NCBI GenBank assembly: GCA_902785275.1
Contig: CACZYB010000008.1
Coordinates: forward strand, 1-47,892
Length of the DNA stretch: 47,892 nt
Reading direction: 5' to 3'
Source: an uncultured Pseudomonadota bacterium
GTDB lineage: Bacteria; Pseudomonadota; Alphaproteobacteria; Rs-D84; CACZYB01
The position numbers and the translations under genes were made by a program. Below, in pieces: positions 1 through 15,515 of the stretch (the first letter of the stretch is position 1; each line of letters opens with the position of its first letter). Below the pieces are notes generated by a model, which worked only from the letters and a program-made list of their open reading frames with translations, had not been told where the DNA came from and did no database searches.

Positions 1-225
1 AAGAATAATGATTTTTATCATTTGTTTTTTTCAGATATTTATTGGAATGATGATATTGGTGAAAAAATATTTATTAGTGAAAAATTTATAAAAGAAATAG
101 CAAAAAGTCCGAATGCTAGAACGTTATATTTTATCTTTTTTACATATCCTTGGTGTTTTGAATTTGAAAATTATTCTTTTAGAATCATAGAAGATGCAAT
201 TTATGATATTTTAAAGAAGGATTAA
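1..225 (+). CDS. 3' end of putative immunity gene, truncated by the window edge; near-identical to C-terminal module of 1643..2266
   Basis: Frame 1 open from base 1 (KNNDFYHLFFSDIYWNDDIGEKIFISEKF...); protein almost identical to the last ~67 aa of 1643..2266. Confidence 0.75.
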   Translation, partial: KNNDFYHLFFSDIYWNDDIGEKIFISEKFIKEIAKSPNARTLYFIFFTYPWCFEFENYSFRIIEDAIYDILKKD

Positions 226-233
226 CAATGTAT
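25..233 (+). repeat. Direct repeat copy 1 (~200 bp; copy 2 at ~2066-2274)
   Basis: tttttttcagat(a/g)tttattggaatgatgatattggtgaaaaaatattt...gattaa(c/t)aatgtat occurs twice with few substitutions. Confidence 0.95.
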
Positions 234-246
234 TAGGAAAATTAAA

Positions 247-864
247 ATGAAATCTTTATTAGATAATTTTCATATTTCGAAATTAACAGAAGATGAATTA
301 TTTTCAGTTAAAAATTTTTTAAAAAGTAATTTTGATTTTAAACAATCTTCTTATAGTGGAATTGATGATAAAGTTATTAATGTGTATAAACCAATTTTTA
401 AAAAATCTTATTTAAAGAACAATAATTTAGTTTTAATTCCTTTTATTCAAGATTGGGATGAAATAGACTTTTTATCTAAATTGTTAGATTACTATAAAAA
501 ATTAAAAGTAATAAATAAGGTATATGTATGCAATACTCAAATATTATATCAAGAAAATATTGATAAAGGATTTAGTATTAATTTTAAATTTAACAATAAT
601 GGATTAAGTCTAAAAGATGAAGCTAAATTTAGATATGATTATACGATTATCTGTCCAGATAATTTTTCTTTCAGTGTTATTTTAGATAATGATGATGATT
701 TTCTTTTTGCAATCAATAGAAATGAAATATTGAAAATAGCATCAAATGATGAACTGAAATCTTATTACAATATTCTAGATTTTAAATCAAAAGATCTTTA
801 CTTGTCTTTATATCAAAACTTTTGTAATTGTGATTATTATAAGGATTTTTATTTATATAAATGA
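247..864 (+). CDS. Hypothetical protein, putative immunity protein
   Basis: 205 aa ORF with AGGA RBS; array context only, no recognisable family. Confidence 0.6.
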   Translation: MKSLLDNFHISKLTEDELFSVKNFLKSNFDFKQSSYSGIDDKVINVYKPIFKKSYLKNNNLVLIPFIQDWDEIDFLSKLLDYYKKLKVINKVYVCNTQILYQENIDKGFSINFKFNNNGLSLKDEAKFRYDYTIICPDNFSFSVILDNDDDFLFAINRNEILKIASNDELKSYYNILDFKSKDLYLSLYQNFCNCDYYKDFYLYK

Positions 865-883
865 TTAGATTTTTAATCTATGA
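859..883 (+). repeat. Cassette junction motif copy 1 (AAATGAYTARATTWWTRAYYTAY)
   Basis: aaATGATTAGATTTTTAATCTAT overlapping the stop of 247..864; related copies at 1561, 3221, 8734. Confidence 0.8.
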
Positions 884-1004
884 TTATAAAGTTATAGGAG
901 AGTATAATGGAAAAGCTGAAGTAAGAAAAATCGAATCAGAAACTATAGATATGTTTAGATTCAGAGATCCAGATAGTTTACCGGGAAATAAAGGAAGGCA
1001 CTAA
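861..1004 (+). pseudogene. 47 aa chimeric mini-ORF: junction stub MIRFLIY fused to a probable toxin C-terminal remnant
   Basis: MIRFLIYDYKVIGEYNGKAEVRKIESETIDMFRFRDPDSLPGNKGRH*, stop abuts ATG at 1005. Confidence 0.55.
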
Positions 1005-1562
1005 ATGAAAAACAATATTTTTAAAATTTTACCAAATGCTGAAGGAATCTTTTTTATAAAAAAAAGTGTGAAAGTTTTATTTGGAATGACAAAAAATTCT
1101 GTGGATAATTTATTTGGAATTATTTCAAATTTTCACAGTAAAGTTATTTGTAAATATCCACAAAATAAAATAATTATAGAATATAAATACATTTACAAAG
1201 AATTTTCCTTATATATGACGTTTATTGATGATAGTTTGGAACTTATACAATTTAATGGAAATAAAAATTCCTTACAGTTTGATAATATAGAATTAACAAA
1301 TAATGATTATAAAAATACTTTAGAAAATCTAAAAAAGATGAAAGTTGATATAACTAAAAATTCAGTACCAGTTTGCGATGAATATTTTGTTAATAAACTT
1401 TGCTGTTCTATTCTAATTTGGGAAGGTAAATTTGATGTTGTTAATGTATACTCTAAAAATTTTCTAGCTAGAAGAAAAAATGATTTAAATAATTTTTTAA
1501 GTAAAATGAGTAGAGATGAAGATGATAATGTTGTCATTAGATATACAAAAATTAAAAAATAA
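1005..1562 (+). CDS. Hypothetical protein, putative immunity protein
   Basis: 185 aa ORF directly after a toxin-like stub and followed by the junction motif. Confidence 0.6.
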   Translation: MKNNIFKILPNAEGIFFIKKSVKVLFGMTKNSVDNLFGIISNFHSKVICKYPQNKIIIEYKYIYKEFSLYMTFIDDSLELIQFNGNKNSLQFDNIELTNNDYKNTLENLKKMKVDITKNSVPVCDEYFVNKLCCSILIWEGKFDVVNVYSKNFLARRKNDLNNFLSKMSRDEDDNVVIRYTKIKK

Positions 1563-1589
1563 ATGACTAAATTTTTAACTTACATATTT
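1561..1589 (+). repeat. Cassette junction motif copy 2
   Basis: aaATGACTAAATTTTTAACTTACATATTT (reads MTKFLTYIF) immediately after the stop of 1005..1562. Confidence 0.8.
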
Positions 1590-1594
1590 ATCCT

Positions 1595-1627
1595 TATAAA
1601 ACATTTTATGACATAAAAAAGAAGTAA
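1595..1627 (+). pseudogene. C-terminal remnant of a barnase-like RNase toxin
   Basis: YKTFYDIKKK* resembles the barnase C-terminus (DHYQTFTKIR) and lies 15 bp upstream of a barstar gene. Confidence 0.55.
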
Positions 1628-1642
1628 CAAAGGGAAAATAAA

Positions 1643-2266
1643 ATGATAAAAGCAAAATATGTAGAAGATATATCAAGTATCAAAAATCTTCTTATTATAG
1701 ATGGCAAAAAGTGTAAAACAAAACAGGACTTATTTAAAGAATATGCAACAGTATTAAAATTTCCTGATTACTTTGGTTATAATTGGATGGCTTTTGATGA
1801 GTGTATTAGGGATTTTGATTTCCCAGAATACGATGGTAAAGATGATATCTTTGTTTTTGTTAAAAATATAGAGGATGTTCTAACTGAAGAAAAATTTGAG
1901 AAATGTACATATTTTAGAACATTTACAAATTTTTTTGAAAAAGTTAATTTTGGAGAAGAATGGGATAAAAATATTTATTTTGTATTTGATAAATATACTT
2001 TGATATTTTTACGAAAAGAAATAATTAAAATTTTTGAGGAAGATTATGATTATTTTCATCCTGTATTTTTTTCAGATGTTTATTGGAATGATGATATTGG
2101 TGAAAAAATATTTATTAGTGAAAAATTTATAAAAGAAATAGCAAAAAGTCCGAATGCTAGAACATTATATTTTATCTTTTTTACATATCCTTGGTGTTTT
2201 GAATTCGAAAAATATTCTTTTAGAATAGTAGAAGATATGATCTATGATATTTTAAAAAAGGATTAA
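1643..2266 (+). CDS. Barstar-family immunity protein with extra C-terminal module
   Basis: IIDGKKCKTKQDLF...LKFPDYFGYNWMAFDECIRD matches the barstar FPxYFGxNWDAxxDCL motif. Confidence 0.85.
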   Translation: MIKAKYVEDISSIKNLLIIDGKKCKTKQDLFKEYATVLKFPDYFGYNWMAFDECIRDFDFPEYDGKDDIFVFVKNIEDVLTEEKFEKCTYFRTFTNFFEKVNFGEEWDKNIYFVFDKYTLIFLRKEIIKIFEEDYDYFHPVFFSDVYWNDDIGEKIFISEKFIKEIAKSPNARTLYFIFFTYPWCFEFEKYSFRIVEDMIYDILKKD

Positions 2267-2274
2267 TAATGTAT
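2066..2274 (+). repeat. Direct repeat copy 2 (of 25-233)
   Basis: Direct sequence comparison. Confidence 0.95.
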
Positions 2275-2814
2275 AAGTTAAAAAAAATTAAATTAAATCT
2301 TGAACAATATAATGTAGTTAGGGATGTTTTAAATTTATCTTTAATTGATAATAGCATAAAGATAAAATTAAATATTAAACAGTACGATATTTTGAAAAAA
2401 ATTTTAAAATTACCACATTCAGATATCCTTTATTTGAATGAAAATGAAGAAATTATGAAGGATTATTGTGTTGTTTCATATTTAGATTTAAGAGAATATA
2501 ACGAAAATGATGGTTTTCAAATTGATAAAATACAAATGAAGTTAAGCATAAAAGAATATAACGGATTAAAAGACATTTTAAAATCTTCACAAAAAATAGA
2601 TTTAAGTGAATATGATTTCGATTATAAAACGCTAAAATCAAACATAGAATTTATAAAATATAATAATGATTATTTTATTACTGGAGATATAGATAATTTA
2701 CTTAATTTAAGAGAGGTTATTGAAGATTATTTTTTGATGAATGGCTTTAAAAATGATGAACCTACAGAAGAAGGACTCTTATATGAGGATTTAATAGATT
2801 TATTGTATTTTTAA
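2269..2814 (+). CDS. Putative immunity protein with three internal K(I/M)KLxxxxY repeats
   Basis: KIKLNLEQYNVVRDVL / KIKLNIKQYDILKKIL / QMKLSIKEYNGLKDIL; acidic C-terminus GFKNDEPTEEGLLYEDLID. Confidence 0.6.
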   Translation: MYKLKKIKLNLEQYNVVRDVLNLSLIDNSIKIKLNIKQYDILKKILKLPHSDILYLNENEEIMKDYCVVSYLDLREYNENDGFQIDKIQMKLSIKEYNGLKDILKSSQKIDLSEYDFDYKTLKSNIEFIKYNNDYFITGDIDNLLNLREVIEDYFLMNGFKNDEPTEEGLLYEDLIDLLYF

Positions 2815-2828
2815 TAATGAAATACTGA

Positions 2829-2903
2829 AAGATAATTGTTCAAATTTCAAATAAATATGATAAAAATTGGAAATGGCCTGCTAACTTAAAAGAAAAAAAA
2901 TAG
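2829..2903 (+). pseudogene. C-terminal remnant of a colicin E5-like tRNase toxin
   Basis: KIIVQISNKYDKNWKWPANLKEKK* resembles ColE5 (EVTQISDKTDPGW); no start codon; ends 8 bp before the next gene. Confidence 0.65.
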
Positions 2904-2911
2904 GAATAAAA

Positions 2912-3226
2912 ATGTCAATAGAAGAAAAAATATTACCTTTGTTAAAAAAAATTAATTTACCAACAATAATTTGGAATGATAATGTTTTGTTGTTTCATGT
3001 TGCAGATGTATTAAAATTTATGGATTTTTGCGATAAAAATAGAATAAATATATTGGGAATGGAAGGTTTTAGAATTTTAAAAGATAAAATACAACCAGAT
3101 TTACAATATATATATGATGGAGAAACTACAGATATAAATCGTAAATTTTTTCAAAAAGATCTGCAAAGTAATTTTAGTCAAATGAAAGATTTGTATTTTG
3201 AATTTGTTTTAGAAGAAATTAAATGA
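2912..3226 (+). CDS. ImmE5/Imm40-like immunity protein
   Basis: DVLKFMDFCDKNRINILGMEGF resembles ImmE5 AIEVCNEAAKKGLWILGIDGG; follows a ColE5-like stub. Confidence 0.65.
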   Translation: MSIEEKILPLLKKINLPTIIWNDNVLLFHVADVLKFMDFCDKNRINILGMEGFRILKDKIQPDLQYIYDGETTDINRKFFQKDLQSNFSQMKDLYFEFVLEEIK

Positions 3227-3249
3227 TTAGATTTTTGATCTATATTTTT
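3221..3249 (+). repeat. Cassette junction motif copy 3
   Basis: aaATGATTAGATTTTTGATCTATATTTTT overlapping the stop of 2912..3226. Confidence 0.8.
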
Positions 3250-3405
3250 CTTTTATTCTTTCCATTTACCTCATCAGTAAATGCACAGGTGGCGGAGGAT
3301 ATTCAACGTCATCAGCAGAATTTGATTGATGCTGGATTTCAAAAGCAAGAACTTGATCGTGCAATACAGCAAACTCCCGCTTCAACATTCAAATATGCTG
3401 AACCA
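3223..3405 (+). pseudogene. N-terminal fragment of a signal-peptide protein (possibly TpsB/CdiB/ShlB-type transporter)
   Basis: MIRFLIYIFLLFFPFTSSVNA signal peptide then Q-rich IQRHQQNLI...QELDRAIQQ; switches to unrelated sequence near residue 60. Confidence 0.45.
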
Positions 3406-3669
3406 ATTGATATAAGAAAAATAGTCTTTGATAATGCGGCAAATCAATGACAACCTACGGCAATTAGAAATTTATAGAAAGTGTTAGATGTAAAAGTCGA
3501 TGGTGCTATTGGTCCTGAAACTTTAAAGGCTGTTGAAAATAGAAATTTTGATGAATTAAAAATGAGATTAACAGAAGAAATAACAAATACATATAAAGAT
3601 ATTATAAAAAGAGATCCTAAACAAATTTATCACCAAAAGGGTTGGTTAAATAGGACAAATAGATACTAA
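3406..3669 (+). pseudogene. C-terminal fragment of GH108 / PG_binding_3 muramidase with two in-frame stops
   Basis: IVFDNAANQ*QPTAIRNL*KVLDVKVDGAIGPETL...KGWLNR in one frame; stops at 3448 (TGA) and 3475 (TAG). Confidence 0.8.
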
Positions 3670-3670
3670 A

Positions 3671-3991
3671 TTATTTTGAATTATAGGGATGTAAATTGTA
3701 TAATTTTAAATAAAGAATATCTTTATTTGTTTTAGAATTACAGTATTTTTCAAAACTTAAAGGGGTCTTGTATTTTTCTATATACTTCCTATTATTCCCG
3801 TCTTGTAAAATAATTTTGTCGCATAAATACATAATATTTTTTCTGGTTTCTAAATCCCCTTCCATTATATAAAAATTACAAATACCTTTACAATCTGTTA
3901 TTGAAACATGATAATATTTTTCAGTATTATTGGGAAACATTTTTCCCATATATCCAGTAAATTTTTTGTTTATAATATCATTAATAAGCAA
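3671..3991 (-). CDS. Hypothetical protein, probably 5'-truncated
   Basis: 106 aa ORF with TTG start, no clear RBS, in-frame stop 5 codons upstream. Confidence 0.4.
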   Translation of the reverse strand: MLINDIINKKFTGYMGKMFPNNTEKYYHVSITDCKGICNFYIMEGDLETRKNIMYLCDKIILQDGNNRKYIEKYKTPLSFEKYCNSKTNKDILYLKLYNLHPYNSK

Positions 3992-4124
3992 ATTATCATC
4001 TGCTTAAGAGCTATTTATTTAAGAATTTTTATTATCTAAAATCGTTGTAGCTCCTTATTTTCTGCAATTTCATAACCTGTGGGGCGGTTGTATAGATGTT
4101 CTATTTAATTGGAATGAATTAAAC

Positions 4125-4376
4125 TTATCGTGTATTAAGAGTTTTAGCTTTATTTAATGCATCTAAAAGATGTAAAGTTCTATAACAAGGTTTACCTTTA
4201 TTATTTAGAACAACTATTGAGTTATCTTGTAGAACAATTTTGTTTTTTCCAACAAACAAAGTATTATTTATCATTTTCATATAATACATAAGTTGTTCTT
4301 CTGCAGAAGGTAGACCTTCATTTTTATTGAAACGATTTTGCCTATCGAATTCTTGTTCTAAATTGAAATAACACAT
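4125..4376 (-). CDS. Hypothetical protein
   Basis: 83 aa ORF with AGGA RBS upstream. Confidence 0.55.
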   Translation of the reverse strand: MCYFNLEQEFDRQNRFNKNEGLPSAEEQLMYYMKMINNTLFVGKNKIVLQDNSIVVLNNKGKPCYRTLHLLDALNKAKTLNTR

Positions 4377-4597
4377 TGTAATATCCTAAAAATAAACAGG
4401 TAACATAATGTATTTATTATAAATAAAAAAGCAATTTTATCAATAAAATTGTAAGTTATTTGCTTTGGTTTAAATTCTTATATTCCTACTGTTAAATTTC
4501 TATTTTAAAAAACTACCAAGAGTGAATATTTTAATCATTTTAACGTTAAAAATACAAATTCGGATAACTTTTAATATTATTCTTTTTCATATTTAAT

Positions 4598-4625
4598 TTG
4601 ACTTTAATCTTGGGTGTTCTATAAT
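4598..4625 (+). promoter_or_regulatory. Sigma70-type promoter for the RNA repair gene
   Basis: TTGACT-N16-TATAAT, then AGGAG RBS at 4646-4650. Confidence 0.65.
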
Positions 4626-4654
4626 ATTTATAGTGTAGTTTAATAGGAGTTTTT

Positions 4655-6895
4655 ATGAGAAATTTAGTATTGCTTCGTGGTATTTCTGCATCTGGTAAAT
4701 CAACATGGTTAAAGGAAAATAAACTTGAACAATATACTGTATCGGCAGATAATTTAAGGTTATTGTATGCTGGTGTTGAGTATAATGCAATTGGACAGCA
4801 ATGTATTTCACAAAAATCGGATGTAAAAGTATGGCGTGAGTTGTTTAATATTGTAGAAACTCGTATGAAATATGGTTTATTGACAATTGTTGATGCAACA
4901 CATACTTCTGAAAAAGCTATTAAGGCATATGATAGTTTGTGTGAACAATACAATTATCGAATGACTATTATAGAATTTGATATCGATGTAGAGGAAGCTA
5001 TAAAAAGAAATTCAGAAAGGGATGAATACAAAAAAGTCCCTGAAGATGTAATTAGAAATATGGCAAAAAAGTTAAATGATCCTTTATCTTCAAAACATCA
5101 AAAATGTATCATAAAAAGCAATTCTCTTGGTGGAAATAGTCCTACATTGTTTCAATATTTATCAAATGATTTTTATGATTTAGGCAAATATGATAAGATT
5201 ATTGTATTTGGAGATATTCATGCATCTTATTCTCCATTAAAGGAATATTTTGATAATGCTCCATATTCTGAAAAGAATTTTTATATATTTATAGGGGATT
5301 ATTTAGATAGAAATTATCAAGCAAATGAAGTTGTTGAATTTATTTTTGATATGATGCAAAAGGACAATGTCATACTTTTACAGGGTAATCATGAAAATCA
5401 TATAAAAAAGATTATTCGGGGTGAGTCTTTTAAAGAAACAACTGATGAATTTGTTAAAACTTGGTCTTTGTTATCTGAAGAGAATAGAGAAAAATTAAAA
5501 ACAATTGGGAAAAAAGTTCGTCAGGTATTCTGTTTTATGTATACAAATAAAAATGACATTAAAGATAGTTTTATTTGTACACATGGAGGTATTCCTGTTC
5601 CGTATATAAATACAGAAATACCAACTTCGCAAATAATTTGTGGTGTTGGAAGATATTCTGATATGCAAGGATGTGATGAAAATTTTGCAAAATTAAGCAA
5701 AAATGAAACTATTAAAAATCATACTACTATATATTCTATTCATGGACACAGAAATCTTGAAAATGTTGATATTCAAAATACAGATAGAACATTTAATCTT
5801 TGTGATGATATAGAACATGGTGGATACTTACGTATTTTGGAAATAACGAAAGATGGATTTAATCCAATAAAAATAAAAAATAATGATTATATAAAGAAAT
5901 CTGATCAGTTATACACTAATGATATAGTAAAAAAATTACATGAGTGTGGATATGTAAAGGAAAAGTTATTAGATGATGGTATCGTATCATTTAACTTTAC
6001 GAGAGAGGCTTTTAGAAAAAACAATTTTAATGATATTTCTGTATTGGCAAGAGGTTTGTTTGTTGATTCAGAAAGTGGTAAAATTATAGCTAGAAGTTAT
6101 AATAAATTCTTTAATGCATGGTTTAAAGAAAATGAAACTAATTCTGAAAAAGAGTATGGAGATTGCTCTATCTATTCTCTTGAAAACAAACTTAAATTTC
6201 CTGTTTTTGTTTATAAAAAAGAAAATGGATATTTAGGTATTGTTTCGTGGAATTACAAAATAGATGATTTTTTTGTGGCCTCTAAATCTACTAATCAAGG
6301 GGATTATGCTCAACATTTTAAAGAAATGTTTGAGGAATATTTAAAAAAATTATCTGATGATCAAAAAGAAAAATTAATAGAAATTGTAAAATCAGGTAAA
6401 TCTATGATATTTGAAGTAATAGATGAAATTTTTGATCCTCATATAATTCGTAACGAAAAACCACAAAAATTTGTATTATTGGATATTGTAAACAATGATT
6501 TTTCAGAAACCTATATGGGATATGATGATTTATTGATTTTGGGGCAAAATCTTTTATTAAATGTAAAGACTAAAGTTAAAGAAATACAAAATTTCAAAGA
6601 GTTAATTGGTTGGTTGGAAACTTATAATGTTTATAACTTAGATGACATTACTTTTTCCAATGATTTTGCAATAGAAGGGTTTGTTATGAAAGACAGTAAT
6701 GATTTTAGATTTAAGTTTAAAACAGCCTACTATTGTTTTTGGAAGAGTTTACGAAATAAACTTGAGGTAATAAAACTTGGTAATAAAGTTAAAAACTGGT
6801 CAAAAGATGAACTAAAGGTTATGGATGTTTGTGGCGATAAACAATTTGATAATGTCCTTGAACTTAGAGAAGCGTATTTTAAAGGAAAAAACTAA
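4655..6895 (+). CDS. Trifunctional RNA repair enzyme: polynucleotide kinase + metallophosphoesterase + Rnl1-type RNA ligase
   Basis: Walker A GISASGKST and DNLR; GDIH, GDYLDR, GNHE, THGG, HGH; ligase motifs RGLF, KFFN, KENG, FEVI, EGFV, KFK. Confidence 0.9.
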   Translation: MRNLVLLRGISASGKSTWLKENKLEQYTVSADNLRLLYAGVEYNAIGQQCISQKSDVKVWRELFNIVETRMKYGLLTIVDATHTSEKAIKAYDSLCEQYNYRMTIIEFDIDVEEAIKRNSERDEYKKVPEDVIRNMAKKLNDPLSSKHQKCIIKSNSLGGNSPTLFQYLSNDFYDLGKYDKIIVFGDIHASYSPLKEYFDNAPYSEKNFYIFIGDYLDRNYQANEVVEFIFDMMQKDNVILLQGNHENHIKKIIRGESFKETTDEFVKTWSLLSEENREKLKTIGKKVRQVFCFMYTNKNDIKDSFICTHGGIPVPYINTEIPTSQIICGVGRYSDMQGCDENFAKLSKNETIKNHTTIYSIHGHRNLENVDIQNTDRTFNLCDDIEHGGYLRILEITKDGFNPIKIKNNDYIKKSDQLYTNDIVKKLHECGYVKEKLLDDGIVSFNFTREAFRKNNFNDISVLARGLFVDSESGKIIARSYNKFFNAWFKENETNSEKEYGDCSIYSLENKLKFPVFVYKKENGYLGIVSWNYKIDDFFVASKSTNQGDYAQHFKEMFEEYLKKLSDDQKEKLIEIVKSGKSMIFEVIDEIFDPHIIRNEKPQKFVLLDIVNNDFSETYMGYDDLLILGQNLLLNVKTKVKEIQNFKELIGWLETYNVYNLDDITFSNDFAIEGFVMKDSNDFRFKFKTAYYCFWKSLRNKLEVIKLGNKVKNWSKDELKVMDVCGDKQFDNVLELREAYFKGKN

Positions 6896-6939
6896 TGTAT
6901 AAATTAAAAAAATAAAATTAAAATCAGAAAAAGATAAAA

Positions 6940-7605
6940 ATGAAATTTAAAGCAAAATTATATATAAATACAGATATAAATGGTGGTAAAGGATTTCAAA
7001 TACCACGTAGTTGTCGAACAGGTTTTCATTTTTTTAAGGGTAATTCCGGCTTTTGGAGTGGACAAATACGTTACTCTGAGAAGTATGATATTATTTATCC
7101 TGGTCAAACCTATGATATTGATGTTTGCATTTATTGGGGGAAGTCGTTTTTTTATCGTATAAACTATTCAAATGAAATTTTTATATCATCAAAACCAGAT
7201 CATGTTTGGGGTAAAATTATAATACCAGATGATGAAATAAAAAAAATAAAACAAGAATGTAAAATAAAAATCATTACAGAAATTTTACCAAAAGAAATAA
7301 TACAAAAAGGCTTTATTACAGAAACTAATGATATTGCTTTTTATGCAAAAGAAATTTTTCAAATTATAGAAATACTTAAAAATAACAATATTGCGATTTT
7401 AGGCGGAAATGTTTTTGTTAAAATTGACAATGTAATAAAATATAGTTCAGATTCTGGAAACTGGCATTGTGATATGATGTTAAATGAAAGCTTTAAGGAT
7501 TTTCAAAAAAAATCATTGAAAACAACAATTAATTATTTAAACAATCTATCAAGAAAAGATGATTATTTGTATAACCTTATTCCTATAGAAGAGTCTGAGT
7601 TTTAA
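6940..7605 (+). CDS. Fusion of EF-Tu domain III-like beta-barrel and Imm40-family immunity domain
   Basis: N-term GGKGFQIPRSCRTGFHF...WSGQI...IYPGQ; C-term IAILGGNVF...NWHCD...SLKTTINYL...YLYNLI typical of Imm40. Confidence 0.7.
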   Translation: MKFKAKLYINTDINGGKGFQIPRSCRTGFHFFKGNSGFWSGQIRYSEKYDIIYPGQTYDIDVCIYWGKSFFYRINYSNEIFISSKPDHVWGKIIIPDDEIKKIKQECKIKIITEILPKEIIQKGFITETNDIAFYAKEIFQIIEILKNNNIAILGGNVFVKIDNVIKYSSDSGNWHCDMMLNESFKDFQKKSLKTTINYLNNLSRKDDYLYNLIPIEESEF

Positions 7606-7616
7606 AGGAAAATAAA

Positions 7617-7988
7617 ATGCTTGAATTTACTTTAATAGATAAAATAAATTTTAAATTTGATGTTTCTGATATTTCTGAAATAGATCAATCTGTTGAATTA
7701 TCTTTAGATATAACTTTTCTGTATGGAAGTTCACAAATTAATTATAAAGATAAATTGTGGTTTGACACACAAAGTATTAAGTTATTTATTTCTAATTTAA
7801 CTATGGAAAAAAATTGTGTTTTTACAAATATTGATGAAAATTTTTTAATGACTATAAAAAATAATAAATTAAATATAGAAATTGATAAAAAAGGATATTT
7901 TTTATCTCCATTGAAAATAAGTTTTAACACCAATATTGATGATGAAATATATAAGATAAAACAATCATTTGATTCTTTATATATATAA
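7617..7988 (+). CDS. Putative immunity protein (WapI-like, tentative)
   Basis: 123 aa, AGGA RBS, beta-rich with LWFDTQSIKLFISNL; array context. Confidence 0.5.
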   Translation: MLEFTLIDKINFKFDVSDISEIDQSVELSLDITFLYGSSQINYKDKLWFDTQSIKLFISNLTMEKNCVFTNIDENFLMTIKNNKLNIEIDKKGYFLSPLKISFNTNIDDEIYKIKQSFDSLYI

Positions 7989-8008
7989 TAAACATTAAGG
8001 AGAAATAA

Positions 8009-8356
8009 ATGTACATAGATCAAGATTTAAAAAACGATATAGTAAATCAAAAAATTATTGGTGTTTATATTGGAATTGATAAAGATGTAAGTCTTACTTT
8101 AGAAAATTATGCTTCAATAGGTATTATCAATTCTTTTACTATACCAGATAGATTTGAAAATTTAATTGAAAAAAAGATAATAGATATACAAGAAAAATCT
8201 GATGCTTATATAAAATTTTTATTAGATGATAAAAGTTGTATTGATGTAAATATGAGTGATAGTGGATTTATTAATGGTCCAGAAGCTCTTGATATAAAAG
8301 ATTCTAAAGATAATAGATATATTATACGAGGAGTTGATGATATTTGTGTGTTTTAA
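8009..8356 (+). CDS. Putative immunity protein
   Basis: 115 aa acidic ORF, AAGGAG RBS; array context. Confidence 0.55.
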   Translation: MYIDQDLKNDIVNQKIIGVYIGIDKDVSLTLENYASIGIINSFTIPDRFENLIEKKIIDIQEKSDAYIKFLLDDKSCIDVNMSDSGFINGPEALDIKDSKDNRYIIRGVDDICVF

Positions 8357-8408
8357 TCCATTCATGAAAAAACGCATATTAATGTTGAATTAAGATCAGA
8401 GGGTATAA

Positions 8409-8735
8409 ATGAAATATTTTGAATTAGAAGTGATAATGACTATGTATTCTGAAAAACAAGACTTTCATGTTCAGAATATTGATAATTGTGGTAAAAAAGA
8501 TGCTAGAATTGGAATTGTAGTATTTACGCAAAATAAAGAAGTCTTGAGCAATAATAGCTTTTTATTAATAGATAAAAGATATACTTTAGAACCATCAAAA
8601 TCATATAATTTTGTTATAAAACTGACTGTAGATGAAAAAAATATCCAACATATAAAGTTACAAAATGAAATTATAATACAAATTGGTATAAATAATTTTG
8701 CAAATGCTATAATAAAAAATATTAAAGAAATATAA
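8409..8735 (+). CDS. Standalone EF-Tu domain III-like protein, putative immunity protein
   Basis: LEPSKSYNFVIKL...IKLQNEIIIQIGINNFANAIIKNI resembles the PG...G..F.I.EG...IG.G.I barrel pattern. Confidence 0.5.
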   Translation: MKYFELEVIMTMYSEKQDFHVQNIDNCGKKDARIGIVVFTQNKEVLSNNSFLLIDKRYTLEPSKSYNFVIKLTVDEKNIQHIKLQNEIIIQIGINNFANAIIKNIKEI

Positions 8736-8770
8736 ATGACTAAATTAATAACTTACTAACTTACATAATC
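8734..8770 (+). repeat. Cassette junction motif copy 4 with internal 8 bp tandem duplication; right end of the array
   Basis: aaATGACTAAATTAA-TAACTTAC-TAACTTAC-ATAATC directly after the stop at 8735. Confidence 0.75.
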
Positions 8771-8804
8771 ATTTGGTGGGTAGTTTCTTTATAGCTTACT
8801 ATTT

Positions 8805-9134
8805 TTAGTATAGAAACTTACTTTCTTTTTTAAGTTTGGAATTTAATTTTGAATCTAGGATTAAATCAAGTTGGTATTGGCGGGTGGTTTGGCTTTCCTC
8901 ATCCATTTCGGTTATTAAGACTTGCTTTGTCTTCTTTAATGTTTTTAATGCCTTTCGTGGGATTTCAGTTAGCTTGATTATTTCGTTTTCATCGCGGAAA
9001 AGAGCCATAGTTTTCTTGCCGTCAAACACCAAAAATGGATTTCTTTGTGGTGTTGGGCGAGAGGATATTATTATCATAACCTTTTCATCTTTGGTTATAA
9101 TTATATCAAATAATGGTTCTAAAATTGTTATCAT
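8805..9134 (-). CDS. Hypothetical protein
   Basis: 109 aa ORF with GGTGG RBS-like motif. Confidence 0.7.
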   Translation of the reverse strand: MITILEPLFDIIITKDEKVMIIISSRPTPQRNPFLVFDGKKTMALFRDENEIIKLTEIPRKALKTLKKTKQVLITEMDEESQTTRQYQLDLILDSKLNSKLKKESKFLY

Positions 9135-9243
9135 TTTTCCACCTTAAGTTTAATATAGCACATAATTATTTTTTTTTAAATATTTTTGTTCTTTATTTTA
9201 TTATAAAAATCTGTTATCATATAGGAAAATATAAGAGGTGAAA

Positions 9244-9669
9244 ATGACAAATTATTCTGATAATCCTTCAATGGATGAAATTTTAAAGCGTATTAAGAAG
9301 GCTTTGGCTGATAGAGAAAAAAGGGCCGAAGTGGAGATGTCTATTGGTTCGGATGATAGTGTCGAAAGCTTTCCTTTGGAAATTTCGCCTATGGATAGAA
9401 AAGTAGAGGTGGAACAGAAAAAAACTTCGGATATTTTCATTAAACCTAATGTTAAATCTGAAAAATCAGGTGTTTTTGTTTTGACCAAAGATATGAAGCT
9501 TAATTCTATGGCAAAGATTACCGATACCGATTTCCAACAACTTTGCTTTAATATTGCAGATAAGATGTCAAAGGATTTGGCAATGGCTTATATGGGGCCA
9601 AAGATGGAAACATGGCTTTTGAATAACTTTTGGGAAGTTGTTGCAAAATCGAAAAAGAATCTTTTTTAA
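9244..9669 (+). CDS. popZ: PopZ-like polar organizing protein (DUF2497)
   Basis: N-term PSMDEILKRIKKAL (PopZ EPSMEEILASIRRII) and C-term GPKMETWLLNNF. Confidence 0.65.
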   Translation: MTNYSDNPSMDEILKRIKKALADREKRAEVEMSIGSDDSVESFPLEISPMDRKVEVEQKKTSDIFIKPNVKSEKSGVFVLTKDMKLNSMAKITDTDFQQLCFNIADKMSKDLAMAYMGPKMETWLLNNFWEVVAKSKKNLF

Positions 9670-9679
9670 ATAACTCTTA

Positions 9680-10279
9680 TTAACGAGTGTAAGTTTTAAG
9701 TTCTTCCTGTATGTTTGTGGCATTGCCGTGGCCGGGGAGAACTTTTGTTTTTGGAGGAAGGGTTAAAAGCTTTTTTATGCTTTCAAAGATTTCTCTTTCA
9801 TTTCCGGTTGGAAGATCTGTTCTGCCATAGGTATGGTAAAACATTGTGTCGCCGGAAAAAAGAGTATCTTCTAAGAGAAAGCAGACGCTTCCTTTTGTAT
9901 GGCCGGGGGTTTCAAGAATTTTTATTTGTTGGTTGCCTATTGTGAAGACTTTGTTTTTATCAAAATATTCGGTAATTTTTGGAACTTCGGTATAGGAAAC
10001 GTAATTTTTTATGCTTTGGATTATTTCTTTATCATTTAGTGGAGCAAATGTAGGGATATTGTATTTTTCAAGGTGATAGTTTACGCCCATTACATGATCG
10101 AAATGTCCGTGTGTAAGAAGAATATATTTTAGATTTGAGCCACTTTCCTTTACAAAATTCATAATTTCATCGGTTGGGCTTGTGCAATCGATTAGTACAG
10201 CTTCCTTTGATGCTTCATCCATTATAAGGTAGTTATTGTTTTGGATTGGACCTTCTATAAATGTTTTTATTTTCATCAT
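9680..10279 (-). CDS. MBL-fold metallo-hydrolase (glyoxalase II-like)
   Basis: THGHFDH, TPGHT, FSGD, PGHG motifs. Confidence 0.92.
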   Translation of the reverse strand: MMKIKTFIEGPIQNNNYLIMDEASKEAVLIDCTSPTDEIMNFVKESGSNLKYILLTHGHFDHVMGVNYHLEKYNIPTFAPLNDKEIIQSIKNYVSYTEVPKITEYFDKNKVFTIGNQQIKILETPGHTKGSVCFLLEDTLFSGDTMFYHTYGRTDLPTGNEREIFESIKKLLTLPPKTKVLPGHGNATNIQEELKTYTR

Positions 10280-10388
10280 TATTTCCTTTTTCTTTACCTT
10301 TTATCGTATTAGAAATACAGGGATTGTCAATAACTTTTGTATTATTATGTAGTTGATTTTTTCAAAAAAAATCTATAATATTTAAGCT

Positions 10389-10931
10389 ATGGAAAGACTT
10401 AGTATTAAATATTGTTGCAAAAATAAGGCAGACCGTAAGTGTGATTTTTCGTTTAGGGGGCTTTCGACTTTTATTGCTTCGGGTATTGTTCCAAAGGATG
10501 CGGAAAAAATCGCTCTTTTTCTTTTGGATAGGAAGAATGACAAGAAGATTATGAAGTATTGGAAGAAGGTTCAGACGGATGAAAAAAAACTTGAGAAATA
10601 TGATGGAACGTTGGAGCAGTTGGAACAAGCCAGAAAGATTGCAGAGGAAGTTGGTATTGAAAATGTGTATGCCAATGCATTGCTTGATATTTCGTATTAC
10701 TGTCCAAAATGTCATAAATTTCAGGTACAGTTTGGCTTCTTTATGACTTGGCAGGATGCAAAGGGAAAACAAAAGATATTTAAGTTCGAACACAAATGTA
10801 AAAATTGTGGGGCGGAGTTATTAAAGCTTACCGGTACATCAAAACAGACATCAAAACTTAAGTGCCCAAAATGTGGTGGGGCGATTGAGGTGGATAATTC
10901 CTCTGTTATAAATGTTGTTACGAGGTATTAA
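10389..10931 (+). CDS. Hypothetical Zn-ribbon protein
   Basis: CPKC, CKNC, CPKC motifs. Confidence 0.75.
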   Translation: MERLSIKYCCKNKADRKCDFSFRGLSTFIASGIVPKDAEKIALFLLDRKNDKKIMKYWKKVQTDEKKLEKYDGTLEQLEQARKIAEEVGIENVYANALLDISYYCPKCHKFQVQFGFFMTWQDAKGKQKIFKFEHKCKNCGAELLKLTGTSKQTSKLKCPKCGGAIEVDNSSVINVVTRY

Positions 10932-11462
10932 TTGATTGAGCGTTTCTTTATAAAGTATATATGTGAGCATACAAGAGATAAGACTTGTGATTTTACTTTT
11001 GATTCTATTGTAAATTTTCCTTACTCAAACATACTTCCGAAAAAACATGTTGATATAGCGAGGGATATTTTATCCGAGTCATAGGATGATGCATTGAAAA
11101 AATTACAAAAAACTCATCCAAAGGTTTATTTGCGTTATAAGGCTGATTTACCAAAGCTTAGGGAAGCAAAGAAGATTGTTGAAAGAATTAGATTTGATAA
11201 TTTGTTTGTTTCTGCTTCGGCTGAAAAGGCAAAAGGAACATTTGAAAAACCAGCTTTTGAAAAGAAAGGTGGCAAAGGACCAATGAAACCTACATTTGAA
11301 AATGGTTGTCTTTCTGTGAAGAATGTAAAGGGACCTATGGCTGATATGTCTACAAAGGCAGATGCTGATGGCGATGGTTGTGTTACAGAAGCTGAATTTG
11401 ATACATTTATGAAAGAACATAAACCATCAGGAAATCCTCCTAAACGTCCAGATGAAGAATAA
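10932..11462 (+). pseudogene. Interrupted paralog of 10389..10931 fused to an EF-hand-containing C-terminus
   Basis: TTG 10932 MIERFFIKYIC...TCDFTF aligns with MERLSIKYCC...KCDFSF; in-frame TAG at 11082; C-term DADGDGCVTEAEF EF-hand. Confidence 0.7.
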
Positions 11463-11482
11463 TATTAATAATATATCTCTTG

Positions 11483-11513
11483 AACCACCTTTTTTTATAT
11501 TAGGTGGTTTTTT
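11483..11513 (+). terminator. Intrinsic terminator
   Basis: aaccacct...aggtggtt followed by T run. Confidence 0.7.
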
Positions 11514-11564
11514 ATTTGTAAATTTTATATAAAGGCATATAATCCATAAAAAACGGAGCCGGTT

Positions 11565-12732: not shown

Positions 12733-14577
12733 ATGTGTGGAATAGTAGGTTATATTGGAAACTCTGATGTCGTTGATATACTTACAAATGGACTTAATAC
12801 CCTTAAATATCGTGGATATGATTCCGCTGGGGTTGCTTTGTTTGATGAAAATAAAATAAAGATTTATAAAGCTGTTGGCAAATTGGAAAATTTGAAGGCA
12901 AAGCTGGAAACTGTTAAATCAGAAATAAAAAATCCATCAATGGGTATTGGTCATATAAGATGGGCTACTCATGGAAAGGCAAACGAAGTTAATGCTCATC
13001 CTCATACTTCAACTTCTTCGGATATAGTTGTGGTTCATAATGGTATTATCGAAAATTTTAAGGAACTTCGTGAAGAACTTACTAAGAAGGGATGTGTTTT
13101 TAAATCAGAAACAGATACCGAAGTGGTAGCTCATCTTGTTTCAGAAGAATATAAAACAATAGGTAATTTAAAAGATGCTGTTAAAAAAGCTTTGGTTCAA
13201 TTAAGGGGAGCTTATGCTCTTTGTATTATGAGTATAAATGAACCGGAACATATTGTTTGTGCAAGAAAGAATGCGCCACTTATCATTGGTATTGGTGAAG
13301 GTGAGAATGTTATTGCAAGTGATATTCCTGCGATTATTTCTTTGACTTCGAATATTATATACCTTAATGATGAGGAAGTTGCAGTTGTGAAGAAGGATAG
13401 TGTTTCAATAGAAAAGTTTAGTGGTGAAAGTGTTCCTTTGAAAATTGTGAAAATTGCAATAGAAACAGATGCTATTTCAAAGATGGGCTATAAACACTAT
13501 ATGCTTAAGGAAATACATGAACAACCAAGTATTGTAAGAAACCTTTTGAACGGAAGAATTGTTGATATAAACAGTCCAATAGAGCTTCCTGAAATAAAAA
13601 TGTCAAAGGATGTTTTACAAAATATTTCAAAAATTCAGATTATTGCGTGTGGTACTTCTTTGCATGCAGGGCAGATTGGAAAGTATTTGATAGAAGATTT
13701 TGCTGGTGTAAGTGCCGAAGTAGAATCTGCTAGTGAATATATATATCGTAAAAATACTACTGATAAAAATAGTTTAGTTATTGCTATTTCTCAAAGTGGA
13801 GAGACTGCGGATACTATTACTGCGGTAAAACAGGCAAAAGAAAAGGGTGCATATATTTTGGTTATTACAAATAGACCAGATTCAAATATTACCCGTTATG
13901 CCGATAGTGTTTTGAATGTGAATGCGGGAATTGAGGTTAGTGTTGCTGCAACAAAATCTTATACTGCACAACTTTTGACACTTTACTTATTTGCAATTTA
14001 TCTTGCTGAAGTAAAGGGGGTAGATGTATCAAACTTTTTAGAAATTAAAAGAGAGCTTTTATCTATACCAACAAAAATGGAAGAAGTTTTAACAACAGAG
14101 GGTGATATTGAAAAGAAGGCGGAAAAACTTTCTGGATTTAAAAATGTTGTTTATATTGGTCGTGGTGTAAATCTTTCTACTGCGATGGAAGGTGCTTTGA
14201 AGCTTAAAGAAATAAGTTATATAAATGCAAATGCTTATCCCGCTGGGGAGTTAAAGCATGGACCTATTGCTCTTCTTGATGAAAATATGCCGGTTGTATC
14301 TGTGCTTATTCCTGGTCATATATCGTATGATAAGACAATTTCTAACTGTGAGGAAGCAAAGGCAAGAAATGCGAAGCTTATTACCGTTACATCATCAAAT
14401 GATGAAAAGCTTAATAATCTTTTTGATGTAATTATAAGAATTCCAGAGGTATCAAATGTATTGTCTCCGATTTTGGCGGTGATACCATTCCAGCTTTTGG
14501 CTTATTACATAAGTAACTTTTTAGGTAAAGATGTTGATCAGCCAAGAAATTTGGCAAAATCTGTTACCGTTGAATAA
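12733..14577 (+). CDS. glmS: Glutamine--fructose-6-phosphate transaminase
   Basis: MCGIVG, YRGYDSAG, GHIRWATHG, C-term PRNLAKSVTVE. Confidence 0.98.
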   Translation: MCGIVGYIGNSDVVDILTNGLNTLKYRGYDSAGVALFDENKIKIYKAVGKLENLKAKLETVKSEIKNPSMGIGHIRWATHGKANEVNAHPHTSTSSDIVVVHNGIIENFKELREELTKKGCVFKSETDTEVVAHLVSEEYKTIGNLKDAVKKALVQLRGAYALCIMSINEPEHIVCARKNAPLIIGIGEGENVIASDIPAIISLTSNIIYLNDEEVAVVKKDSVSIEKFSGESVPLKIVKIAIETDAISKMGYKHYMLKEIHEQPSIVRNLLNGRIVDINSPIELPEIKMSKDVLQNISKIQIIACGTSLHAGQIGKYLIEDFAGVSAEVESASEYIYRKNTTDKNSLVIAISQSGETADTITAVKQAKEKGAYILVITNRPDSNITRYADSVLNVNAGIEVSVAATKSYTAQLLTLYLFAIYLAEVKGVDVSNFLEIKRELLSIPTKMEEVLTTEGDIEKKAEKLSGFKNVVYIGRGVNLSTAMEGALKLKEISYINANAYPAGELKHGPIALLDENMPVVSVLIPGHISYDKTISNCEEAKARNAKLITVTSSNDEKLNNLFDVIIRIPEVSNVLSPILAVIPFQLLAYYISNFLGKDVDQPRNLAKSVTVE

Positions 14578-14581
14578 AAAT

Positions 14582-14605
14582 AAGGGCCTTTTAAAAAGGC
14601 CTTTT
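14582..14605. terminator. Bidirectional terminator between glmS and xerC
   Basis: aagggcctttt-aa-aaaggcctttt hairpin flanked by A and T runs. Confidence 0.7.
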
Positions 14606-15515
14606 ATTTTGCGTGAGGGTGGGCCGAGTTATAATTTTCTATGATTTTACCCATATCGACTTTGGTATAAAGTTGAGTTGTGGAAAGGGAGCTGTGTCCT
14701 AATAATTCCTGTATAGTTCTTAAATCTGTACCATTTGCAAGAAGGTGTGTTGCAAAGCTGTGGCGAAGACTGTGGGGGGTGGTTGTTTGTGGAAGTCCCA
14801 GATAATCACGAGCCATTGCAATATCTCTTTCTGCAACACGAGGAGTGAGTCTTGCACCCTTTACTCCACGAAAAACAGGAGTGTTTGGTTTGAAATCGAA
14901 TGGTGCGATTTTTAAGTAATCGAAAACTTTTTCCTTTATTATATCAAGTATTGGGATAAGTCTTTCTTTGTTACCCTTACCGGTGATGCGTAAGACATCG
15001 TTGTTTGATATATCTGATATGTTAAGGTTTAATGCTTCGGATATTCGAAGTCCACAACCATAGATTAGTGTGAAAAGGGCGATGTCGCGTTTGGCAATCC
15101 ATTTTTCCTTTATCAAATCATTAAAGCTTTCGAGTAGTTTTATTACATCCACAGTAGCAATGGATTTTGATAATTTTTTTGGAATTTTTGGGGAATGTAA
15201 AATTTGGATTGCTTGGTTATTTGCAATTTCATTTTGTTGCATAAATTTGAAAAAATTTTTAAGGCTGGAAACATTTCTTGCGATTGAAACGTTGCTTTTA
15301 TTTTGGCGGGTAAGGTGTGCCAAAAAACTTCGGAATGTGGATATGGATATATCATTTAAAAATTTTGCATCAATTTTTTTTAACTCTTTGGTTTTTGTAA
15401 GAAAATCGATAAAAAAGGAAATATCCCTGTTGTAATTTTCAAGGGTATTTATGGATACACGACGTTCGGATCTTAAAAAATCAAGCCATAATTCTTTTAT
15501 TTTTGTTATGTGCAT
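14604..15515 (-). CDS. xerC: Tyrosine recombinase XerC
   Basis: LIYGCGLRISE, GKGNKER, TPHSLRHSFATHLL, DLRTIQELLGHSSLSTTQLY. Confidence 0.88.
   Translation of the reverse strand: MHITKIKELWLDFLRSERRVSINTLENYNRDISFFIDFLTKTKELKKIDAKFLNDISISTFRSFLAHLTRQNKSNVSIARNVSSLKNFFKFMQQNEIANNQAIQILHSPKIPKKLSKSIATVDVIKLLESFNDLIKEKWIAKRDIALFTLIYGCGLRISEALNLNISDISNNDVLRITGKGNKERLIPILDIIKEKVFDYLKIAPFDFKPNTPVFRGVKGARLTPRVAERDIAMARDYLGLPQTTTPHSLRHSFATHLLANGTDLRTIQELLGHSSLSTTQLYTKVDMGKIIENYNSAHPHAK

Follow-up and report, generated by a model that had tools for sequence, protein, structure and literature searches.

The DNA analysed here, referred to as the window, comprises the first 47,892 bases of contig C8 in a 1.05-Mb, 18-contig assembly of an uncultured alphaproteobacterium, and its position 1 is an assembly break at the contig end. 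The bacterium is ascribed to the gut; one sequencing run labelled bovine gut metagenome contains 99% of the stretch and may be its source, other runs contain small shares of its words (5-16%), and no RNA run containing it was listed. We examined the AT-rich block at positions 1-8790, a group of small immunity-type genes, and its relation to a two-partner-secretion (TPS) system, consisting of a toxin gene (tpsA) and the gene for its outer-membrane partner (tpsB). The genome under study is designated G000 and its congeners G003, G004, G005, G006, G007 and G009; C denotes a contig and L a locus extracted from a genome. Assignments of toxicity, immunity and export are based on homology and position throughout.

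The guanine-plus-cytosine (GC) content of the block was 23.4%, compared to 32.9% for positions 8805-47892, in agreement with an earlier sequence-only reading that had described it as very AT-rich. That reading had counted about ten short co-oriented genes. Nine are intact small open reading frames (ORFs) on the plus strand (247-864, 1005-1562, 1643-2266, 2269-2814, 2912-3226, 6940-7605, 7617-7988, 8009-8356 and 8409-8735), and the tenth (1-225) is truncated at its 5' end by the contig end. The genes are closely packed, with start codons directly after stops. A Pfam search that covered 18 ORFs in 1-9669 and 35 in 9680-47797 revealed no intact toxin or secretion gene, in line with the earlier reading. 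As the window begins at the contig end, this says nothing about the DNA to the left. Array A (1-3222) ends at a truncated tpsB (3223-3450) and array B (6940-8735) ends in the fourth copy of a repeated junction. The features of both arrays are as follows.

1-225, plus strand: 3' part of a gene, with the C-terminal extra domain of the barstar fusion at 1643-2266.
247-864, plus strand: 205-amino-acid ORF, presumed immunity gene by position only.
858-880, plus strand: junction copy 1, a tpsB 5'-end scar with about 24 nucleotides kept (MIRFLIY).
882-1004, plus strand: toxin tail, Tox-URI2-like (GIY-YIG/URI fold), in frame behind junction copy 1.
1005-1562, plus strand: immunity gene for the Tox-URI2-like toxin type, homolog of C10:445-987.
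1560-1582, plus strand: junction copy 2, with about 35 nucleotides of the tpsB start kept (MTKFLTYIFIL).
1643-2266, plus strand: barstar-family immunity gene with a C-terminal extra domain of about 100 amino acids.
2269-2814, plus strand: 181-amino-acid ORF of a family seen in the pre-tpsB position in relatives.
2912-3226, plus strand: 104-amino-acid putative immunity protein, probably with an ImmE5/Imm40-like fold.
3220-3450, plus strand: junction copy 3 and truncated tpsB, 75 codons encoding the signal peptide plus N-terminus.
6940-7605, plus strand: 221-amino-acid ORF, C-terminal half Imm40-like.
7617-7988, plus strand: 123-amino-acid ORF, presumed immunity gene by position only.
8009-8356, plus strand: 115-amino-acid immunity-type gene with homologs in G006.
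8409-8735, plus strand: 108-amino-acid immunity-type gene that forms the final cassette ahead of the second tpsB scar.
8733-8770, plus strand: junction copy 4, scar of a second, deleted tpsB (8736 to about 8770) and right end of the island.

The recurrence of one junction motif after four genes was confirmed. The 23-nucleotide motif TAAATGAYTARATTTTTRAYYTA occurs exactly at 858, 1560 and 3220 and with two mismatches at 8733, so that the block holds four copies where 0.01 were expected; none of 100 shuffles reached four. In a scan of the whole genome, the motif was found outside the window only at C10:985 and C10:11529, plus one match with three mismatches on C1. We also surveyed 19 genomes of the family, permitting one mismatch. 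The motif occurred six times in G000, twice in G007, and once each in G009 and G006, which are the four genomes with a full-length tpsB, and the reversed pattern, used as a control, gave no match in any of the 19. The pattern was derived from the window's own copies, and its independent support is this restriction to tpsB-bearing genomes. The intact tpsB of G007 opens with the motif (MTKLLTYIFILFFAFTSLVNAQ...) and the intact tpsB of G009 does likewise. The junction motif is the 5' end of tpsB, comprising the start codon and the predicted signal peptide; TpsB is the outer-membrane partner of a CdiA-like two-partner-secretion toxin.

Each orphan module in the genus starts with a copy of the first ~65 nucleotides of tpsB. 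The orphan toxin modules of G007, G009, G006 and C4 all open with a tpsB-like signal peptide, followed by Cys-Tyr or Gly-Tyr and then by toxin sequence; for G006, five complete orphan starts were aligned and a sixth toxin ORF runs off the locus end. Twelve bases of the junction, TAAATGACTAAA, hold a stop in each of the three frames, just before or inside the ATG, and for this reason unrelated upstream genes all terminate at the motif. As judged by alignment, the toxin parts in the window are missing from a point 24-35 nucleotides into the junction. The remnant at 3223-3450 has 80% identity to TpsB residues 6-61 of C10:3813-5498 (E 1.7e-23), and the DNA of this third-copy remnant is 90% identical to C10:3822-3993.

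Several orphan toxins of the genus (L017:18929-19558, L019:14167-15267, L020/L024 and L002:6911-7333) have their own ATG, a tpsB-like signal peptide ending in ...SSVNA and then a lipobox-like Cys-Tyr. Such orphan toxins might be exported on their own instead of being silent.

The cell's own, presumably working tpsA and tpsB are located on other contigs (C7 and C10). The single TPS-domain gene in the genome, C7:2-6421 on the minus strand, is a 2143-codon open frame running off the C7 start, with matches to PF05860 (TPS, E 1e-34) and PF13332 (Fil_haemagg_2, E 3.5e-24). The one intact ShlB-type tpsB, C10:3813-5498, encodes 561 amino acids and matches PF03865 (E 1.9e-69) plus POTRA_2 and POTRA_3. 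Two junction-started orphan toxins near the end of C4, one of them cut by the contig end, also contain the conserved C-terminal region of the C7 tpsA product (...DNRVFTSEGR). The C7, C4 (two), G007 and G009 proteins share ...DNRVFTSEGR and then diverge, and small ORFs follow these putative toxin tips. On C10 the layout is toxin end, immunity gene, further small ORFs, tpsB, ten more small ORFs and the junction scar at 11529; the second array, downstream of tpsB (6241-11560), includes a frameshifted barstar, DUF2247 and DUF7674. Two C10 ORFs have counterparts in G009. The C-terminal 131 residues of 8444-9082, in the second array, share 90% identity with the gene that immediately follows the main TpsA tip, and 1034-1381, in the array that precedes tpsB, shares 88% identity with the gene following the orphan toxin. 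Contact-toxin/orphan-immunity DNA of this kind makes up ~2.9% of the assembly.

Of the four start-less toxin C-termini that had been proposed in the intergenic DNA, the one at 882-1004 was verified. Its first 18 residues agree at 17 of 18 positions with the C-terminus of the toxin end at C10:2-415, and 881-936 shares 89% DNA identity with C10. The C10 toxin end scored below the gathering score of Tox-URI2 (PF15653; 17.6 bits, cut-off 20, E 0.005), and the window stub comprises only the last 40 residues. The next gene, 1005-1562, matches C10:445-987, which lies directly behind that toxin end (phmmer E 1.6e-23, 33% identity). The last ~57 nucleotides of 1005-1562 and the adjoining junction are 94% identical to C10:928-1007, despite diverged gene bodies, and this 3' end with its junction reads as a recombination mosaic.

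The description of the genes as orphan immunity-type genes that lack their toxins was borne out, several ORFs being homologous to genes directly behind intact toxin modules of congeners. The ORF at 8009-8356 has 47% identity (E 3.3e-32) to G006 L024:4702-5052 and is related (E 5.4e-6) to L024:5112-5471, the gene directly behind a toxin C-terminus. Likewise, 8409-8735 has 56% identity (E 1.3e-41) to G007 L017:19555-19887, between an orphan toxin and tpsB, and 6940-7605 matches G006 L020:18180-18569, located behind an orphan toxin (phmmer E 9.3e-6). The 2269-2814 ORF matches C10:2880-3215 (phmmer E 1.8e-19) and G009 L019:13430-13678, directly upstream of tpsB (E 2.6e-6).

The family assignments made for these genes were upheld in part. 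The barstar assignment of 1643-2266 is clear (PF01337, E 1.1e-14, 54.5 bits, cut-off 23.4). An ImmE5-like fold is tentatively supported for 2912-3226, which had no Pfam match at E<=0.1 and a feature similarity of 0.88 to Imm40 clusters in the ESM Atlas. Imm40 proved to be a weak match only: 6940-7605 scored 19.5 bits against PF15569 (E 1.5e-3), below the 25-bit cut-off, and its best ESM Atlas value of 0.75 was at chance level. Neither 247-864 nor 7617-7988 matched a family in Pfam, NCBIfam or PHROG. All four database relatives of 247-864 are full length (205-206 amino acids, 63-98% identity), as are seven of the eight non-self relatives of 7617-7988 (88-93% identity); the AlphaFold2 model of the latter had a predicted local distance difference test score of 36 and was unusable. 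A candidate relationship of 247-864 to G006 L024:2650-3219 was dropped, as the match spans 17 residues only (E 0.005). A frameshifted paralog of the barstar fusion lies at C10:7310-7875. Barnase (PF00545) was not found in the assembly, and a search for the barstar fusion in 401 genomes of the class gave one distant match, in G045 (E 9.8e-10), without an informative upstream toxin.

Positions 5-251 have 90% nucleotide identity to 2046-2292, and the protein of ORF 1-225 matches 1643-2266 with E 6.7e-43. The extra C-terminal domain of the barstar fusion is present in three copies with 84-90% nucleotide identity (5-251, 2046-2292 and C10:7688-7883), and this repeat is probably the reason for the assembly break at position 1. 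Many other contig ends of G000 (on C1, C2, C6, C11 and C13) lie inside Cys-rich repeat proteins (...CPAG...C..C...), which look like a multi-copy surface-protein family that fragments the assembly.

We compared the position of the block with TPS loci of congeners. The order toxin, immunity, optional orphan and tpsB (A-I-(O)-B) is present in G007 L017:12296-20000, in G009 L019 and in C10:1-5498. In G007 and G009, tpsA-immunity-orphan-tpsB lies beside homologs of window genes 10389-10931 and glmS (12733-14577), and the window block therefore occupies the same chromosomal neighbourhood. Genes upstream of the G007 locus had no synteny match in G000, and synteny with G009 is heavily rearranged and offers no more than a hint that the end of C4 comes before the start of C8; when genome contigs were searched with the C4 orphan, only the G009 contig matched. 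At the right boundary, homology to the island-free G004 and G003 begins at 8805, and homology to four of five metagenome loci begins at 8802-8805 (the fifth at 8875). These five short loci, found with the flanking core gene 9238-9669, are too few for a comparison of cassette order between strains.

The region between the arrays (3223-6895) is not an immunity array. Besides the 5' remnant of tpsB, it holds a fragment of an endolysin gene, two ORFs on the reverse strand and a 746-amino-acid phage-type RNA ligase, which are distributed as follows.

3413-3991: inserted fragment with an endolysin-like PG_binding_3 C-terminal piece (3481-3669, plus strand) and a truncated convergent ORF (3671-3991, minus strand).
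4021-4392: post-tpsB DNA, which follows the tpsB 3' end in G005, with an 83-amino-acid ORF at 4125-4376 (minus strand).
4655-6895, plus strand: intact 746-amino-acid phage-type polynucleotide kinase-phosphatase-RNA ligase of the tRNA 'heal and seal' type.

The piece at 3481-3669 matches PF09374 (E 1.1e-10) and the endolysin family phrog_315 (E 9.9e-10). The intact form of the 3413-3991 gene pair is on contig C5 of G003 (L025:4362-5270 and 5267-5827), where its products are a 302-amino-acid protein, Cys-rich at the N-terminus and ending in a PG_binding_3 tail, and a secreted protein of 186 amino acids. This convergent pair may be another effector/immunity-like pair or a phage lysis module. On contig C30 of G005, the tpsB 3' end at 68-694 is followed by 741-810, which matches window 4021-4089, and by 1891-2214, which matches 4065-4392; a paralog of this DNA is present at C2:148956-149230. 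As 4021-4392 corresponds to the DNA behind the tpsB 3' end in G005, the body of tpsB has been lost from the window copy.

The RNA ligase has the Pfam domains AAA_33, Metallophos and RNA_lig_T4_1 and matches phrog_8238 'RNA ligase' over residues 1-714 (E 1.1e-173). It was covered at least 80% by 112 of 251 matching phage records and was present in one of 101 genomes of the order, G000 only. A strong promoter-like site precedes it at 4598-4625, with 11 of 12 positions matched. The enzyme could mend tRNAs that RNase-type toxins have cleaved, or it may be no more than phage debris. A further scar, TAATGTATAARTTAAAAAAA, occurs at 2267-2286 and 6893-6912 and in degenerate form at 226-246. It is the start of the 2269-type gene (MYKLKK...) and recurs directly after the RNA ligase gene and, degenerate, after ORF 1-225; the genome holds two exact copies, compared to 0.75 expected at two or fewer mismatches.

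Taken together, positions 1-8790 are very probably the decayed downstream part of a type Vb CdiA-like locus with the order tpsA (toxin)-immunity-(orphan modules)n-tpsB. Whole toxin-tip/immunity modules would have been added in front of tpsB by recombination anchored in tpsB, through homology-facilitated illegitimate recombination or exchange between junction repeats, and every addition would have duplicated the tpsB 5' end. Later deletions would then have removed the toxin parts from just inside the junction to near the toxin 3' end. The local tpsB copies would also have been destroyed; in one case phage-like DNA now stands where the gene was deleted, and in the other only a scar is left. The immunity genes would have been kept intact because they protect against toxins delivered by related strains or neighbours. 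Judged from homology and position only, those that remain would neutralise the toxins of related strains. The mechanism of recombination, the sequence of these events and the protection itself are inferred. The genome appears to be an end state in which toxin parts were discarded and immunity genes retained. Loss of the secretion gene is not unique to G000, since the congener G002 has a decayed tpsB (C3:131346-132068) with eight internal stops.

Capture of immunity genes with only a harmless tail of the toxin, as had been proposed, is not what the relatives suggest. Intact orphan modules with the same junction are present on C4 and in G006, G007 and G009; therefore, whole modules were acquired and the toxin parts deleted later. 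The locus is essentially an ordinary polymorphic-toxin locus with decayed orphans, the outcome that the sequence-only reading had itself set against an archive, and a direct link to a full-length toxin is not demonstrable, as the contig ends at position 1. The observation behind that reading is largely right and its interpretation half right.

Several results weigh against a decayed TPS locus. Physical linkage of the window to tpsA is unproven, the window starting at a contig end and no contig-end overlaps being found that involve C7, C4, C10 or C8. The centre of the block is phage-like and not toxin-related. The other three proposed stubs (1595-1627, 2829-2903 and 8357-8407) had no significant match to a tiny database of 12 toxin C-termini gathered within the genus (best E 0.38 and 0.049). 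Neither a family nor a positional homolog could be assigned to ORFs 247-864 and 7617-7988 or to the barstar fusion's extra domain. The window copies are only 33-56% identical to congener immunity genes, which makes cross-protection uncertain, and the expression and protective role of the array genes are presumed. Finally, PF04829 (PT-VENN) did not match the last 361 residues of G007 TpsA (E<=0.01) or C7 TpsA (E<=0.001), the VENN string was not found at the conserved/variable boundary, and a regular expression for Nx(E/Q)LYN found none in C7 TpsA, G007 TpsA, the G009 TpsA part or the two C4 orphans. As both signatures are missing at the boundary, the system is not a textbook CdiA or BcpA.

Under another account, the block is a remnant of the same locus but a pure fossil, whose ORFs are not expressed and serve no protective purpose at present. 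Neither local tpsB copy is left whole and every toxin part has been destroyed, and a promoter and terminator scan gave no signal above chance (66 promoter-like sites, compared to 83.8 expected). A 'fossil record' is also one of the models offered in the contact-dependent inhibition (CDI) literature, in the part of the source available (PMC4927057). However, the nine small ORFs are all intact despite the deletion of each toxin part, close homologs from other assemblies have kept their full length (4/4, 5/5 and 7/8), and the gene spacing is tight. We regard a pure fossil as unlikely.

It is also rather improbable, in our estimate, that the duplicated tpsB start is a purpose-built cassette adaptor (three-frame stop, restart codon and signal peptide) flanking the modules, with the RNA ligase co-opted as a generic immunity factor. 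If this were true, the adaptor would permit gain, loss and exchange of modules by ordinary homologous recombination, much like an integron that lacks its integrase, and would equip every orphan toxin with a start and an export signal of its own (a signal peptide, then Cys-Tyr). The RNA ligase would restore tRNA after cleavage by RNase-type toxins, against which barstar and ImmE5-like proteins act individually.

If the block were instead a foreign island, left by a phage or mobile element that came in as a single piece and had no relation to the resident TPS system, this would account for the GC difference (23% versus 33%), for the endolysin fragment and phage-family RNA ligase in the middle, and for the finding that most of 1-8790, apart from scattered modules, has no DNA match in 12 of 13 congeners. 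However, low GC is common to the TPS arrays of relatives and the phage-like DNA is confined to 3413-6895. In addition, remnants of tpsB occur twice in the block and junctions derived from it four times; modules are shared with C10 and C4 of G000, and the position is syntenic with the TPS locus of G007 and G009. Such an origin is very improbable.

An archive of acquired interbacterial defence genes driven by a recombinase (rAID, integron-like), with cassettes inserted at the repeated junction by a site-specific enzyme, has hardly any probability left: the low GC, the small genes all in one direction, the motif repeated between genes and the orphan immunity families correspond to three rAID-1 criteria in the accessible text of the source (10.1101/471110), and a recombinase could sit beyond the off-contig 5' end of the array, but the motif is the coding start of tpsB and of orphan toxins and not an attC-like element, no recombinase is present in 1-9300 or in C10:1-15000, which holds a paralogous array, and the window's sole tyrosine recombinase, an Xer-type core gene on the minus strand (14604-15515), lies at a distance of 5.8 kb with core genes in between and is conserved beside the same genes in the island-free G003 and in metagenome locus L030. 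The analogy to such archives drawn at the outset therefore fails, the junction being a tpsB start, the window having tpsB remnants, and an intact tpsA and tpsB being present elsewhere in the genome.

The rule by which modules stack in the genus, each opening with a copy of the secretion gene's start, provides a simple sequence handle with which toxin/immunity modules can be found and ordered in metagenomes of this lineage. The tpsB-derived junction is lineage-specific. To our knowledge, work on contact-dependent toxin loci and their orphan immunity genes has dealt almost exclusively with cultured Proteobacteria and gut Bacteroidales.

In the tpsA loci of Neisseria meningitidis, the TpsA toxin gene is followed by silent 3' tpsC cassettes with intervening immunity ORFs. 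The gene order differs from that of the locus described here, and the tpsC cassettes are not known to have a tpsB-derived start.

Burkholderia bcpAIOB/cdiAIB loci encode a TPS toxin with a variable C-terminal tip in the order toxin, immunity, extra small ORF(s) and TpsB gene, and some BcpO proteins are small lipoproteins with signal peptides, as the available part of the source describes them (PMC3415462). The gene order and the variable tip are shared with the loci examined here, as far as that text goes (PMC3415462). In contrast, no Nx(E/Q)LYN boundary is present, the conserved region ending in ...DNRVFTSEGR; the ORFs between immunity gene and tpsB are orphan toxin/immunity modules and not a conserved BcpO; and each orphan opens with a copy of the tpsB signal peptide. 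The orphan cdiA-CT/cdiI arrays of the E. coli type are likewise tandem, co-oriented and often fragmented pairs of toxin tip and immunity gene, and are read, in the portion of the source at hand, as a fossil record kept for immunity or as a silent reserve (PMC4927057). According to the same text, those arrays trail cdiBAI, often with transposase or integrase genes, whereas here the array precedes tpsB and no transposase was seen. Also unlike the E. coli type, the inter-module repeat is the tpsB 5' end and, in G000, only immunity genes survive.

Bacteroidales rAID-1 clusters, defined by a 5' XerD-like recombinase and integron-like repeats, resemble the block as low-GC, co-directional orphan immunity arrays of gut bacteria with a repeated intergenic sequence, according to the accessible text (10.1101/471110). 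In the block, however, the repeat consists of coding sequence of tpsB, and the available DNA showed no recombinase linked to the array, whose 5' end is off-contig. A tpsB-start junction is not described in the accessible parts of the CDI, type VI secretion system (T6SS) and rAID-1 literature cited, and no literature search was aimed at it.

In the T6SS of Vibrio cholerae, newly arriving effector-immunity modules take the place of older effectors, whose immunity genes and in some cases 3' ends stay behind, and homology-facilitated illegitimate recombination has been proposed as the mechanism of this sequential displacement, in the part of the source consulted (PMC5361080). The orphan immunity arrays described there belong to a T6SS and have no duplicated secretion-gene start as a junction. 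VipB/TssC, the T6SS sheath, was not found in G000. In the terms of these partly available sources, our model matches the fossil-record or reserve model for CDI (PMC4927057) and the sequential-displacement model for T6SS (PMC5361080). Current models are not overturned; the fossil-record and sequential-displacement ideas are extended to a new lineage with a new kind of junction.

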